Shown here: piece after piece, positions 50,813 through 54,376 of the stretch
Numbering within the stretch: the stretch's first letter is position 1
How the letters are laid out: every line of letters starts with the position of its first letter
Assembly (NCBI RefSeq): GCF_028368995.1
Contig: NZ_JAQNDL010000004.1
Span: 1 to 64,000 of the forward strand
Source of the DNA: Nannocystis bainbridge
GTDB taxonomy: Bacteria; Myxococcota_A; Polyangia; Nannocystales; Nannocystaceae
Length of the DNA stretch: 64,000 bases
Direction: 5' to 3'
The notes under the pieces: model-generated
The model's database searches: none
What the model was told of the DNA's origin: nothing
Seen by the model: only the letters and a program-made list of their open reading frames with translations
Program-made: the position numbers and the translations under genes

Positions 50813-50845
50813 TTGACAAGTATGCTTTCCATGGTGGAAAGCATA
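50813..50845 (+). promoter_or_regulatory. TTGACA -35-like box followed by a perfect 25-bp palindrome, TATGCTTTCCA-TGG-TGGAAAGCATA; putative operator of the downstream HTH regulator.
   Basis: Arms of 11 bp at 50821-50831 and 50835-50845. TTGACA at 50813-50818. Regulator ATG at 50852. Confidence 0.6.
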
Positions 50846-50851
50846 CGCGTC

Positions 50852-51961
50852 ATGTCTGAAAGCGAGCCGAATCGGGTGCGCGCGGTGCGGGAGGCCCGGG
50901 GCCTGTCGCAGACCGAGCTGGCGGCGCTGGCCAGCCTGTCGCGGCAGAGCGTGGGCGCGATCGAGGCCGGGCGGGCCACGCCGGCGGTCGACGTGGCGCT
51001 GCGGCTGGCGCGGGCGCTGGACTGCAGGGTCGAGGAGCTGTTCGCGCTCGCCGCCGCGGACGCGCGGATCGAGGCCGAGCCGGCGACGCCGGTGCAGGCC
51101 GGGCGCGTCGCGCTGGCGCACCTCGGCGGCCGCTGGATCGCGCATCCGCTGGTCGGCGAGGCGATGCGGCTCGGGGCCGACGCGGTCGTGAGCGGGGCGG
51201 GGCGGCGTCGCGGTCGGGTCGAGGTCGAGCTGGTGCGACCGCGCGCCGAGGCGCAGGACAACCTGGTGGTGATGGGCTGCGCGGCGGCCCTGGGCGTGCT
51301 TGCCGATCGCCTGAGCGCGCGGGCGGGGGCCGGGCGGGTGGTCTGGCTGCCGCGCTCGAGCACGCAGGCGCTGGCGGCCCTGGCGGCCCAGCACACGCAC
51401 GTGGCCGGGGTGCATCTGGTCGACGGGCGCACCGGCGAGGCCAACGTGCCCGACGTGCGCCGCCACGCCGCCGGGGCGATCGTGCTGATCACGCTGGCGC
51501 GGTGGGAGGCGGGGCTGCTGCTGGCGCCCGGCAATCCGCGGAAGATCCGCGGGGCGGCCGACCTCGGGCGTCGCGGGCTGCGGCTGGTCGCGCGCGAGAC
51601 CGGCTCGGGTTCGCGGCGGCTGCTCGAGCGCGAGCTGCAGCGCGCCGGCCTGGCGACGACCCTGGCCAGCGCGGCGCCGGTGCGGGCCAGCGGCCACCTC
51701 GAGGTCGCGCAGGCGATCGCCAGCGGCGCGGGTGAGGTCGGGGTGGCCACGCGTGACGCCGCGATCGCGTTCGGCCTCGATTTCGTGCCTCTGTGCGAGG
51801 AGCGCTACGATCTGGCGATCCCGCAGGCGCTGGTGAACGATCCGCGACTCTTGCGGTTCCTCGACGCGATGACCTCGGCGGCGTTCCGCCGCGAGCTGTC
51901 GGCGCTCGGCTACGACGTGCGCGGCTGCGGCGACCGCGTGGCGGAGCTCGATGCCGCCTGA
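50852..51961 (+). CDS. XRE-family HTH transcriptional regulator with a C-terminal periplasmic-binding-protein-like domain.
   Basis: N-terminus RAVREARGLSQTELAALASLSRQSVGAIEAGRATPAVDVALRLARAL (HTH_XRE). PBP-like C-terminus. Confidence 0.8.
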   Translation: MSESEPNRVRAVREARGLSQTELAALASLSRQSVGAIEAGRATPAVDVALRLARALDCRVEELFALAAADARIEAEPATPVQAGRVALAHLGGRWIAHPLVGEAMRLGADAVVSGAGRRRGRVEVELVRPRAEAQDNLVVMGCAAALGVLADRLSARAGAGRVVWLPRSSTQALAALAAQHTHVAGVHLVDGRTGEANVPDVRRHAAGAIVLITLARWEAGLLLAPGNPRKIRGAADLGRRGLRLVARETGSGSRRLLERELQRAGLATTLASAAPVRASGHLEVAQAIASGAGEVGVATRDAAIAFGLDFVPLCEERYDLAIPQALVNDPRLLRFLDAMTSAAFRRELSALGYDVRGCGDRVAELDAA

Positions 51962-51976
51962 CCTTTGGAGCAGATC

Positions 51977-52960
51977 ATGAAGACACGGGTGTTTGCGATG
52001 ATGGCGGCGCTGGCGGCCTGCGTGCCGCAGGCGACGACGACGGCCAGCGACGGCGAGACGGCCACGGCGGCGACCACGGAGACCGGGACCACCGACGCGG
52101 CGCCGACGACTGGCGACACGACCGGGGCGCCGGCCCAGTGCGAGACGTTCCCGCCGTACCGCATCGACGTGCAGGCCGAGCCGAACGGGCTCTACTACCG
52201 CGTCGACGAGGCGCGGCTGTACATCGCCGACGACGACAACAACCGGGTGCTGGTGCGCGACGAGGACGAGACGCTCGCGGTGTTCACCGAGATCCCGAAC
52301 CCCTCGGGCGACCCGGGCTCGGACGGCCTCGGCGACCTCGATTTCGCGGCCGACGGCGCGCTCTACCTGCCGCGCTTCGGCTTCGGCATGCCCGGGCTGG
52401 GGGCGATCTTCCGCGTCGCCGCGGACGGCACGGCGGAGGCGATCGCGGGCGTCGACGACGAGTGGCGGCGGGTCGGCCTCGACTACGACGACGCGCGCGG
52501 GCTGCTCTACGTGGCCACCTACTCGCGCGACGCCGACGACGTGTACACCGGCTGGATCGCCAGCGTCGATCCGGTCGCCGGCGTCGAGACGATGATCGTC
52601 GGCGGCCTGTCCAAGCCGGTCGGGATCGCGGTGCTCGGCGACACCCTGTTCGTCGGCGACCAGGCCCAGCGCCAGCTGTTCAAGCTCGACCTCGAGGCCG
52701 CCGCGCCGGCGCTGACGCTGGTGTCGGACGAGTTCGAGTCGCTCGACCTGATGGAGACCACGCCCGACGGGGCGCTGCTGGTGCTGTCCTACGACACCGC
52801 CAACAGCACCGGCCGCGTCTATCGCGTGACGCAGGACGGGGCGATCACCACCGTCGCGGAGGGTGACTGGGAGCCGCGCGGGATCGCCTTTGACGGCGTC
52901 AGCCGGATCTTCGTGTCGGCCCGCGACACCCAGCAGATCGTGGTCGTGCCGGCCTGCTAG
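51977..52960 (+). CDS. Lipoprotein, beta-propeller (SMP-30/NHL-like) fold.
   Basis: Lipobox MMAALAAC, Thr-rich linker, repeated strand-like segments. Confidence 0.6.
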   Translation: MKTRVFAMMAALAACVPQATTTASDGETATAATTETGTTDAAPTTGDTTGAPAQCETFPPYRIDVQAEPNGLYYRVDEARLYIADDDNNRVLVRDEDETLAVFTEIPNPSGDPGSDGLGDLDFAADGALYLPRFGFGMPGLGAIFRVAADGTAEAIAGVDDEWRRVGLDYDDARGLLYVATYSRDADDVYTGWIASVDPVAGVETMIVGGLSKPVGIAVLGDTLFVGDQAQRQLFKLDLEAAAPALTLVSDEFESLDLMETTPDGALLVLSYDTANSTGRVYRVTQDGAITTVAEGDWEPRGIAFDGVSRIFVSARDTQQIVVVPAC

Positions 52961-52966
52961 GCGCCC

Positions 52967-54376
52967 GTGGGACCGATGATGGGCTTCATCGCGGCGGTCG
53001 TGCTGGCCGCGCCGGCCGACGAGGTCACCAGCGTGCCGGTGCCCGCGCGGGCCGAGGTCGTGGATGGCGCGAAGGACATGCCCGATGCGGCAGGTTCTCA
53101 AGGACATGTCAACAAGGACATGTCCTCGGGGACTGACACGGAGCGCGCGCCGCCCGTGCGGGTGCTCGAGGACCTGCCCGTGAGCCAGACCTCGCCGGCC
53201 GGGCCGAAGGCGCCCGCGGTCGTCCCCGGAGCTGTCGCCAAGGACATGCCCCAAAAGTCAGACTCTGCGGCCAGGCCGCTGCGCGAGAGGTTCGAGTTCT
53301 TCCCGTACGGGTGGGTCCGCACCGACGCGACCTGGTACTCGGCGCCGCGCGAGGGCTACAGCAACATCAGCCTGGCCGGGGCGCGGCTCGGCGGCGGGGT
53401 CGTGGTCGGGCCTGTGACGGCGTTCGTGACGATCGAGGCGGCCCAGGCCAAGGGGCCGCAGCTGTTCGACGCGTTCATCGCCTGGGCCGCGGCGCCGCGG
53501 CTGCGGCTGCGCGCGGGCCAGTTCAAGGCGCCGTTCGGGCTCCGCTTCAACGCGCCCGATCTCGTCGACGAGCTGCCGCGGGCGCCGCTGTCGATGCTGG
53601 CCGCCACGCCCGGGCGGCAGGTCGGGCTCGAGGTCGCCTACGATTTCTGGCGCTGGGCCGAGGTTACCGCCGCGGTGTTCTCGGGCATCGGCCAGAACCG
53701 CGAGGCCAACAACACCAAGATCGCGTTTGCCGGCAAGCTGCAGGTCAACCCGCTGGCGTTCCTGCCGCGCGGGCCGCAGCTGATCCTGGTGGCGTCGGTG
53801 TTCGGGTACCACAAGACCAATGGCTTCACGCCGACGGTGACCACCGGGTTCGGCTTCGATTTCTTCCACGGCCTGCCGAGCACCGGGGCGGCGCGCCGCT
53901 TCACCGCCGGCGGCGGGCTGTTCTGGCGGTTCCTGTCGGCCCGCGGCGAGTTCTTCTACACCCGCGACTCGCGCGAGCGCGACACCGACGGCGACCCGTT
54001 CACGCCCGGCGATCCGCTGCCGCAGCTGATCGGCGCCGGCGGTTACGCGCAGATCGGGGCGGTGGTGACGGGGCAGGACAAGGACCCGGCGACGCTGCTG
54101 CCGCGGCTGGCGAGCCGGCGCGTGCGCGACAGCGCGGTCGAGCTGTCGGCCCGCTTCGAGCGCTTCCGCGTCGGCGCCCGCGACGTGGTCGGCAACGGGA
54201 TCCTTGCGACTTCGGCGGGGATCAACTGGGTGCTGCTGCAACACCTACGGGTGTTCGCGGCGGTGAACTGGCAGCGGCTCGAGACGGCAGTGCCGGAGCT
54301 CCCGCAAGCGTCGTCGTGGGGCGTGACGGGCGGGGTGGCCGGCTTCTTCCTCGGCCGCGCCGGCCGCGGCGACTGA
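52967..54376 (+). CDS. Outer-membrane porin of the phosphate-selective porin O/P family.
   Basis: GQFKAPFGLRF and alternating beta-strand pattern to the C-terminus. The N-terminal ~95 aa are low-complexity and the start codon is uncertain. Confidence 0.7.
   Translation: MGPMMGFIAAVVLAAPADEVTSVPVPARAEVVDGAKDMPDAAGSQGHVNKDMSSGTDTERAPPVRVLEDLPVSQTSPAGPKAPAVVPGAVAKDMPQKSDSAARPLRERFEFFPYGWVRTDATWYSAPREGYSNISLAGARLGGGVVVGPVTAFVTIEAAQAKGPQLFDAFIAWAAAPRLRLRAGQFKAPFGLRFNAPDLVDELPRAPLSMLAATPGRQVGLEVAYDFWRWAEVTAAVFSGIGQNREANNTKIAFAGKLQVNPLAFLPRGPQLILVASVFGYHKTNGFTPTVTTGFGFDFFHGLPSTGAARRFTAGGGLFWRFLSARGEFFYTRDSRERDTDGDPFTPGDPLPQLIGAGGYAQIGAVVTGQDKDPATLLPRLASRRVRDSAVELSARFERFRVGARDVVGNGILATSAGINWVLLQHLRVFAAVNWQRLETAVPELPQASSWGVTGGVAGFFLGRAGRGD
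53070..53252. repeat. Array l: AAGGACATG units at 53077, 53105, 53119 and 53245, in the 5' region of the porin ORF.
   Basis: Seen directly. They encode the repeated KDM tripeptides if the 52967 start is used. Confidence 0.55.

Follow-up and report, generated by a model that had tools for sequence, protein, structure and literature searches.

The window analysed here comprises the first 64,000 nt of contig NZ_JAQNDL010000004.1 of Nannocystis bainbridge (RefSeq assembly GCF_028368995.1), read on the forward strand, with a G+C content of 71.5%. It contains a locus of three genes coding for a one-component transcriptional regulator, a beta-propeller lipoprotein and a porin-like outer-membrane protein, together with a palindrome in front of the regulator gene that had been singled out in a preliminary description of this DNA. 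The following features were assigned to the locus:

50813-50818, + strand: TTGACA, a -35-like hexamer overlapping the outer left half-site TGACAAG, at a position conserved in orthologues
50814-50852, + strand: 39-bp dyad-symmetric operator-like region TGACAAG-TATG-CTTTCCA-TGG-TGGAAAG-CATA-CGCGTCA, reaching as far as the A of the start codon
50820-50846, no strand assigned: perfect palindrome GTATGCTTTCCA / TGGAAAGCATAC (arms of 12 bp around a 3-bp spacer), forming the inner portion of the operator-like region
50837-50842, + strand: GAAAGC, which by position weights takes the place of the -10-like box TAAAGC conserved in orthologues
50852-51961, + strand: one-component regulator of 369 aa with a CylR2-like XRE helix-turn-helix (HTH; residues ~7-66) and a PBP_like/ModA-like sensor (residues ~150-355)
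51977-52960, + strand: lipoprotein of 327 aa with a signal peptide, a ~35-aa Thr/Ala-rich disordered tether and a six-bladed beta-propeller
52967-54376, + strand: OprP/OprO-like outer-membrane beta-barrel with a signal peptide (Pfam, AlphaFold2 and Foldseek)

The coding frame, as judged by third-position GC, was unbroken from ~50850 to 54376, and the intergenic gaps amounted to 15 and 6 nt. The placing of the propeller and porin genes on the same strand at small distances was thereby borne out, as were the identities proposed for all three products in the preliminary description, through Pfam matches, the lipobox and fold models. Because the gaps are this small, the three genes are likely co-transcribed. 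A longer reading frame starting upstream (ATG 50666, 431 aa) was considered as the true regulator gene and rejected: third-position GC falls there, and Met1 (50852) is invariant among orthologues.

The regulator was matched by the Pfam models HTH_3 (PF01381; 55.2 bits, cut-off 23, residues 9-63) and PBP_like (PF12727; 185.5 bits, cut-off 27, residues 152-340), with a weaker match to SBP_bac_11, the ModA family (40 bits), additional matches to HTH_31, HTH_26 and HTH_19, and weak ones to Phosphonate-bd (19 bits) and PBP_like_2. A profile search of the PDB with the HTH part returned CylR2, the Enterococcus cytolysin repressor, as the best match (E = 1.7e-10, residues 7-66) and also the 434 repressor, while a PDB sequence search with the sensor domain alone gave nothing usable. 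Unlike CylR2, which has no sensor, the protein described here carries its HTH fused to a sensor of ~250 residues. Small XRE repressors typically bind at promoters, as dimers on inverted repeats. Proteins with 90% identity to the regulator are encoded by N. exedens and N. pusilla and are named in databases 'transcriptional regulator of molybdate metabolism, XRE family' or 'regulator of molybdate uptake', so that this class of XRE-PBP regulators is already known at the level of annotation; no account of an XRE regulator of molybdate with a PF12727 domain was found in the searchable literature. TunR, which combines an XerC-like DNA-binding domain with Mop, was rejected as an identity for the regulator, in which Pfam finds neither domain.

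The propeller gene is preceded by GGAG 6 nt before its ATG, and its product is 100% identical to a Nannocystis bainbridge protein. The signal peptide MKTRVFAMMAALAAC carries the lipobox L12-A13-A14-C15, which satisfies the pattern [LVI][ASTVI][GAS]C, and C15 is invariant in 23 homologues. Two further cysteines, C55 and C327, are nearly invariant and likely form a disulfide joining the N- and C-terminal ends of the propeller. The AlphaFold2 model (predicted local distance difference test, pLDDT, 86.8) shows 23 strands in six blades, and the top Foldseek matches in the PDB were strictosidine synthase, lactonases, DFPase and Drp35, all six-bladed, with template modelling (TM) scores of 0.6-0.68. 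Likeness to such propellers of the SGL type (PF08450) thus comprises the fold (TM ~0.67) and weak SGL and NHL signals, the SGL score being borderline below its cut-off (25.6 against 26.3 bits); the match to the ScyD/ScyE family also fell short (44.6 bits, cut-off 80). In contrast to these proteins, the propeller studied here is made as a lipoprotein, its tether is long and flexible, a disulfide likely connects its N- and C-terminal parts, and its gene lies in a context of transport and regulation and not of metabolism.

The start of the porin gene is uncertain (GTG 52967, ATG 52976 or ATG 52979), and the barrel, which begins at about 53267, is preceded by a variable N-terminal extension of ~90 aa. 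The match to Porin_O_P (PF07396) reached 26.9 bits (cut-off 20.9) over residues 161-262 only; precomputed PF07396 matches are found on nearly all members of the porin family. With an AlphaFold2 model of moderate confidence (pLDDT 75.6), Foldseek placed OprP (2o4v; E = 7e-18, TMq 0.73) and OprO (4rjw; E = 1.4e-16) of Pseudomonas aeruginosa ahead of general porins, and the family has a large number of invariant Arg and Lys residues. These points of likeness are set against an identity to OprP and OprO of only 13-16%, the failure of a PDB sequence search with the porin profile to give anything usable, the variable extension, the constant pairing with a propeller lipoprotein, and a placing under a molybdenum (Mo)-type regulator instead of in a Pho-regulon context. 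Within the porin open reading frame (ORF), four in-frame AAGGACATG(T/C)C repeats, of the same kind as the decamer repeat of the window treated below and read as Lys-Asp-Met, occur at 53072-53251. The N-terminal extension that carries them differs in length and sequence between Nannocystis species, and their position within it suggests that repeat insertions have been absorbed into the coding sequence.

The conserved dyad and the putative promoter of the regulator gene

In the preliminary description, TTGACA was said to be followed directly by a palindrome with perfect 11-bp arms, TATGCTTTCCA (50821-50831), TGG and TGGAAAGCATA (50835-50845), in a layout fitting autoregulation. The hexamer and both arms lie at these positions, except that two bases (AG) separate TTGACA from the palindrome; the 11-bp arms are indeed perfect, the full perfect arms being one base pair longer (12 bp, 50820-50846), and imperfect symmetry (78%) reaches outwards to arms of 27 nt (50805-50861). 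Six bases (CGCGTC) lie between the 11-bp-arm palindrome and the regulator ATG at 50852. In 200 first-order Markov simulations of a window of 71.5% G+C, palindromes with arms of 12 bp (spacer 0-8) numbered 0.4 per simulated window on average and those with arms of 11 bp 1.4, and none of the 200 simulations contained 11-bp arms that were equally AT-rich (≤4 G+C).

When the half-site TGGAAAGCATA was sought across the window, allowing up to two mismatches, only the two arms and a chance-level match at 25534 were returned (3 found, 1.8 expected). That the half-site might be lacking elsewhere had been named beforehand among the things that would count against the proposal; within the window it does not recur beyond chance, which does not refute a locally acting autoregulated operon and which argues that the palindrome is not a dispersed repeat.

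The palindrome proved to be the core of a larger conserved element. When the upstream regions of orthologues were aligned by anchoring on the start codon, ~53 orthologous loci across Myxococcota (50-90% protein identity) carried a dyad at a fixed distance from that codon, with the layout TGACAAG (-38 to -32), CATG, CTTTCCA (-27 to -21), tgg, TG(T/G)AAAG (-17 to -11), CATA, CgtGTCA (-6 to 0) and TG. The family consensus, TGACAAG-N4-CTTTCCA-N3-TGkAAAG-N4-CnnGTCA, consists of four TGnmAAG-type heptads in alternating orientation, equivalent to two 18-bp pseudo-palindromic units 21 bp apart, and its global dyad symmetry is centred on position -19. For 39 loci, the distance from the TAAAG box down to the codon matched with Met1 by tblastn is 15 nt exactly, a result independent of motif-based anchoring. 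Other Nannocystis species retain only 7-8 perfect inner base pairs (CTTTCCA-N3-TGGAAAG), and for this reason the perfect 25/27-bp palindrome, as judged from these comparisons, is a local sharpening, specific to this genome, of a larger conserved site.

A position weight matrix (PWM) of the aligned sites found one strong site in the window, namely that of the regulator gene (scores of 28.1 and 22.2 on its two 18-mers and of 60 on the 39-mer), and no second site, so that no regulon beyond the operon was visible there. Across 900 kb of related loci, strong matches were found almost solely before regulator genes, usually as pairs 21 bp apart, and the dyad was also present at the start of the regulator in three loci on which the matrix had not been trained (L084, L085 and L087). 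Conservation of the dyad at the orthologue start in ~53 loci and in these three supports the autoregulatory layout proposed earlier. A loose pattern scan of metagenomes with GCTTTCCANNNTGGAAAG returned at least 120 stretches, and none of those listed encoded the regulator, the propeller, the porin or ModA, and is uninformative as to further copies of the operator. No description of an operator for the class combining an XRE HTH with PF12727 was found in the searchable literature; the dyad offers a defined candidate operator for a widespread regulator class that is annotated but uncharacterised.

The dyad coincides with an unusual promoter-like arrangement. At the position of TTGACA, orthologues have TTGACA, ATGACA or GTGACA, while in about a dozen loci TGGAAAG takes its place, which on its sequence is a further copy of the heptad and not a variant -35 hexamer. 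No canonical -10 hexamer was found 16-18 nt downstream of TTGACA; GAAAGC follows the -35-like hexamer by 18 nt and precedes the ATG by 9 nt, the latter distance being constant among orthologues. The -10-like box has A at -14 in 99% and A at -13 in 97% of cases, figures that are partly inflated by the anchoring. No Shine-Dalgarno sequence precedes the regulator ATG. Taken together, the -35-like hexamer, the 18-nt spacer, the box, the constant 9 nt to the ATG and the missing Shine-Dalgarno sequence suggest that transcription starts at or within ~3 nt of the start codon, giving a leaderless or near-leaderless mRNA. This reading is supported by a sub-group of loci, exemplified by L014, in which the motif sits ~90 nt upstream and GAGGA precedes the ATG instead. 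As the site spans the region from -35 to +1, control would be expected to take the form of repression.

Gene neighbourhoods in relatives and the likely ligand

A search with the regulator, restricted to one genome per species, gave 79 related loci. The HTH-bearing regulator loci numbered 73 (72 retrieved plus that of the window) and were distributed as follows:

36 of 73: modA-modB-modC immediately downstream of the regulator gene, on the same strand
12 of 73: regulator, propeller and OprP-like barrel, with no mod genes in range
2 of 73 (L017, L018): regulator, propeller, barrel and modABC
1 of 73: regulator and propeller, followed by the contig end
4 of 73: a barrel of the Alginate_exp family (PF13372, AlgE-like) between regulator and modABC
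2 of 73 (L068, L069): a Porin_O_P gene adjoining regulator and mod genes
16 of 73: other or uninformative neighbourhoods

The group of 12 comprises the window, five Nannocystis species, a Nannocystaceae metagenome-assembled genome (MAG), Hyalangium, a Myxococcaceae genome and three further MAGs. Together with L017 and L018 this makes 14 loci in which the propeller gene is followed immediately by that of an OprP-like barrel, and searches begun from propeller or porin homologues also recovered the order regulator-propeller-porin (L084, L085, L087). In L017 the regulator gene is separated from the propeller gene by 17 nt, the propeller gene from the barrel gene by 3 nt and the barrel gene from modA by 10 nt; modA shares 4 nt with modB, and modC comes next. 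Hidden Markov models (HMMs) of the window's propeller matched the Hyalangium-type propellers at E ~1e-71 to 1e-73, and those of its porin matched the corresponding barrels at 1e-9 to 1e-13 (25% identity in full-length pairwise alignment), so that both can be regarded, on these profile matches, as true homologues. The mod assignments were checked in a Sorangium locus (L080), where ModA scored 130 bits (TIGR01256 equivalog cut-off 62.5) and ModB 216 bits (TIGR02141, 182.6), with ModC below its cut-off (183 against 285 bits). No pst, phn or cys genes were found beside any of the 79 loci.

The ligand sensed by the regulator is most likely molybdate or tungstate, in view of the 36 orthologues that head modABC operons and of the two loci in which regulator, propeller and porin run on into modABC. 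The same ligand is suggested by the sensor itself, which is homologous to ModA (hhalign against ModA of the related operons: 80.7% probability, E = 1.3e-5) and belongs to a domain family that is fused to MoeA in Clostridia and Desulfovibrio; in addition, the candidate pocket motifs S169-S170-T171, G251-S252-G253 and A299-T300-R301-D302 are invariant between regulators of the modABC type and of the propeller-porin type. Molybdate and tungstate are indistinguishable in this analysis, and tungstate is included wherever molybdate is proposed below. The preliminary description had seen in the locus a ligand-sensing uptake module; the neighbourhoods lend this weight and sharpen it, since gene context points to a tie between the propeller-barrel pair and molybdate uptake.

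Several neighbourhoods depart from these patterns. The AlgE-like barrel genes (L008, 7086-8585; L034, 7243-8631; L043, 2534-3934, where the contig ends after the barrel; L055, 7083-8456) belong to another, unrelated family of barrels that takes up the outer-membrane slot in Mo operons. In L012, L014, L016 and L057 (~7060-11070), and similarly in L037, L038 and L053, a different module lies downstream of the regulator, made up of three same-strand ORFs of ~530, 480 and 300 aa without a Pfam match; in this group the operator-like motif is set back by ~90 nt from the regulator gene on its upstream side, and there is a Shine-Dalgarno sequence. L014 also contains an operator-like sequence, TGTAAATCGAACCTGTCA (2575-2592), before a propeller homologue (HMM score 151 bits) that is followed by a di-haem cytochrome c peroxidase-like gene (2622-5621 for the two genes together), and the regulator, with its own site, is found another 2.4 kb along; the propeller-peroxidase unit is possibly a second regulon member in that MAG. 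L083 (2133-9310) has a propeller-porin pair of the L084 type without a regulator, beside plasmid-type Rep3, ParA and ParB genes and with a different palindrome, TGATAAGTATCCTTATCA, 50 nt before the propeller gene, and may represent either a mobile or rearranged copy or a faulty assembly. In L086 (352-1305), matches to GTP_EFTU and PBP_like replace the HTH in a gene directly before propeller and porin, which is probably a chimeric assembly or a truncated regulator.

Proposed function and alternative explanations

We consider it probable, with moderate confidence, that the three genes form an operon controlled by its own first gene, which encodes a cytoplasmic one-component sensor of an oxyanion, most likely molybdate, and that it includes a candidate pair of proteins for uptake across the outer membrane. 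According to this proposal, the oxyanion-bound regulator would occupy the 39-bp dyad (50814-50852) as two dimers or a tetramer and would thereby cover the -35-like TTGACA, the -10-like box and the start of the (nearly) leaderless mRNA, shutting off regulator, propeller lipoprotein and porin together; that the oxyanion-bound form is the repressor is assumed by analogy with ModE. Scarcity of the oxyanion would derepress the operon, and the OprP-like anion channel, aided in some way by the tethered propeller, would raise the flux of oxyanion across the outer membrane towards a ModABC importer encoded elsewhere in the genome.

The closest characterised relative of the regulator is TaoR of Desulfovibrio alaskensis, which two reports describe as a tungstate-responsive regulator of aldehyde oxidoreductase and tupABC (PMC11980592, PMC12327845) with an excisionase/MerR-like HTH_17 DNA-binding domain (PMC11980592). 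In vitro, TaoR is reported to bind its DNA whether or not ligand is present (PMC12327845). The two proteins share a cytoplasmic one-component design with an N-terminal HTH and a PF12727/IPR024370 sensor, as well as a tie to genes of Mo or tungsten (W) transport. They differ in the DNA-binding domain, which is HTH_17 in TaoR and here a CylR2-like XRE HTH_3 without an HTH_17 match in Pfam; in the operator, here a 39-bp dyad at a presumed near-leaderless promoter; and in the putative targets, here the propeller and porin (modABC in relatives) and not a tungstoenzyme. As regards control of Mo/W genes in the manner of TaoR, 36 orthologues head modABC operons and two loci join propeller and porin to modABC; the window itself holds neither a mod nor a tup gene. 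The locus brings together a sensor that resembles TaoR except in its DNA-binding domain and a porin of the OprP type set in a molybdate context.

Similarity to ModE, which in E. coli and many others represses modABC in a molybdate-dependent way, is one of function only. Both would act as oxyanion-loaded dimeric repressors on a palindrome over a promoter for molybdate uptake, apparently so in the present case, and orthologues of the regulator occupy a modE-like position before modABC. There is no homology between them: ModE has a ModE_N winged HTH and two Mop/TOBE domains, and the regulator matches neither in Pfam or NCBIfam. Furthermore, the regulator described here is the first gene of the operon it would control. 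The ModE box reads ATCGnTATATA-N6-TATATAnCGAT (PMC545781), to which the upstream sequence of the window (TGACAAGTATGCTTTCCATGGTGGAAAGCATACGCGTCA) and its TGnmAAG heptads are unrelated.

A number of observations weigh against this interpretation. To our knowledge, the relatives in Porin_O_P that have been characterised so far are phosphate or diphosphate channels, and the fold class of the propeller is made up mostly of enzymes, which makes a role outside transport possible. No modABC genes were found within the 64-kb window, and for Nannocystis the link to molybdate rests on orthology, at 60-68% identity to the modABC-linked regulators. A sigma-70 consensus scan of 50400-54700 gave no promoter; the -10-like box is without its final T throughout, and the first T is missing as well in Nannocystis (GAAAGC). 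The PWM was scored on sites on which it had been trained, so that its independent support comes only from the untrained loci and from the lack of matches elsewhere. Finally, the two solved PBP_like structures are listed with phosphate (PMC10443332).

A more specific reading is advanced tentatively, as one that we judge somewhat less probable than its opposite. Propeller and barrel would here constitute a dedicated, Mo-starvation-induced outer-membrane system for acquiring free molybdate or tungstate, in which a molybdate-tuned porin would be served by a propeller that captures, concentrates or liberates the oxyanion at the channel, the AlgE-like barrels would have the same role in sister lineages, and the pair would provide the first outer-membrane leg for the classical ModABC pathway under the control of XRE-PBP Mo sensors acting on a leaderless, self-repressed promoter. 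Uptake of molybdate across the inner membrane by ModABC and its control by ModE are textbook knowledge, and outer-membrane passage of free molybdate is usually ascribed to 'general porins'; no link between molybdate and an OprP-type porin or a propeller lipoprotein was found in the searchable literature. The locus and its relatives present a concrete candidate for an outer-membrane molybdate route, consisting of an anion-channel homologue and a lipoprotein under a Mo-type sensor, placed in the same operon as modABC in some genomes and with unrelated AlgE-like barrels in that position in other lineages.

An identical architecture could serve another oxyanion in Nannocystis (phosphate, phosphite/phosphonate, sulfate, vanadate or arsenate), the regulator having been re-purposed when it became linked to an OprP-type porin. 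The known substrates of Porin_O_P channels, the leading position of OprP and OprO among structural matches, the weak regulator matches to Phosphonate-bd and PBP_like_2, the phosphate listed with PBP_like structures and the lack of modABC in the window are all in keeping with such a change. We nevertheless regard it as unlikely, as L017 and L018 place homologous propeller and barrel genes in one array with modABC, the pocket motifs do not vary between modABC-linked and porin-linked regulators, and the neighbourhoods are free of pst, phn and cys genes. If the ligand were phosphate-like, the finding would shrink to an ordinary regulator-porin pair.

Alternatively, the regulator may control itself while propeller and porin do not form a transport pair for its ligand; the propeller could, for example, hydrolyse an organic compound in the periplasm or at the cell surface, in the manner of a lactonase or phosphotriesterase, with a porin that admits substrate or product, and the link to modABC in relatives would come from shared regulation alone. 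The enzymes that head the propeller's fold comparison (strictosidine synthase, lactonases, DFPase, Drp35), its weak SGL, NHL and ScyD/ScyE matches, and the propeller homologue of L014 that is followed by a di-haem peroxidase-like gene and not by a porin gene speak in its favour. We think it improbable all the same: an OprP-like barrel always comes directly after the propeller in the 14 loci, two of which continue into modABC, the gaps being 3-17 nt; the propeller-porin pair has no catabolic genes beside it, and OprP-type channels are narrow anion channels.

A third possibility is that the palindrome acts as a nucleic-acid hairpin, whether in a 5'-leader RNA (as an attenuator or through effects on stability or translation), as a cruciform or as a REP (repetitive extragenic palindromic)-like element. 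It would fold, if transcribed, at -22.3 kcal/mol (z -5.1), and the genome is rich in other hairpin-forming repeats, but among 52 orthologous sites there was no compensatory covariation between the arms, complementarity equalling the shuffled expectation, and most relatives are mismatched (TGTAAAG opposite CTTTCCA). Symmetry without compensatory covariation fits a protein operator, each of whose arms would be conserved towards a recognition consensus, better than an RNA hairpin. The dyad moreover lies between the -35-like box and the start codon, 6 nt from the ATG, with no Shine-Dalgarno sequence to sequester and no T-run, and its sequence occurs once in the window and not as a dispersed repeat, all of which makes the hairpin very unlikely.

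It is just as hard to believe that the conserved sequence is merely a strong, unusual promoter in which TTGACA, TG and TAAAG are contacts of RNA polymerase, perhaps with an alternative sigma factor, the symmetry being incidental and the regulator acting elsewhere: the most conserved positions are indeed the -35-like and -10-like boxes at their 18-nt spacing, but about a dozen loci put the inner half-site heptad at the -35 position, conservation includes the spacer and the stretch between the -10-like box and the ATG (T-25, C-22, T-8, C-6, C-1), where promoters alone are normally not conserved, arm complementarity in register (64% of cells in the 52 sites) is twice that in slid registers (27-46%), L054 and L056 carry clean TGACAAG-N4-CTTGTCA palindromes, and the motif co-occurs only with this regulator family.

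Flanking repeats and other operator-like arrangements

The operator-like region is preceded by a YCII gene and the three-gene unit is bordered by repeats on either side:

50198-50590: upstream YCII gene, neighbour on the 5' side of the operator-like region
50646-50673, no strand assigned: GGATATGTCC/GGACATGTCC palindrome between the YCII gene and the operator-like region, in a repeat array that extends over 50646-50730
54377-54470, + strand: GGACATGTCC-type repeats arrayed just behind the stop codon of the porin gene, the repeats themselves lying at 54395-54450, with motif matches at 54426 and 54440

The palindrome at 50646-50673 is likely the 5' boundary of the unit. The array after the porin gene could form a strong RNA hairpin (-50.1 kcal/mol, z -4.9) and is likely the 3' boundary, perhaps with a terminator function. 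A terminator scan of 50400-54700 found none that was convincing, its single terminator-like match (53934) lying inside the porin gene and being at chance level.

The self-complementary decamer GGACATGTCC (with at most one mismatch) has 32 sites in the window, against 2 expected. It often occurs as pairs 14 bp apart, mostly in intergenic positions, and forms strong hairpins; examples are found at 642-665, 14599-14622, 18203-18255, 20919-20985, 34737-34837, 39375-39398, 50648-50671 and 54426-54449. Exact copies are rare in the other Nannocystis loci examined, and the decamer looks like a genome-specific REP-like or terminator-like repeat of Nannocystis. The sole other palindrome with 12-bp arms in the window that is not of the GGACATG type, GCGGGCACCTGG at 59389-59420, is GC-rich and has an 8-nt spacer.

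An unrelated conserved operator-like arrangement, TGGAAAGT-N10-GCTTTCCA-N3-TGGAAAGTGAGGA, is common to high-GC metagenome contigs (L088, 1060-1110; L182, 130-185; L192, 830-880; L193, 160-215). It uses the TGGAAAG heptad and sits just before genes for membrane proteins of ~150 aa.

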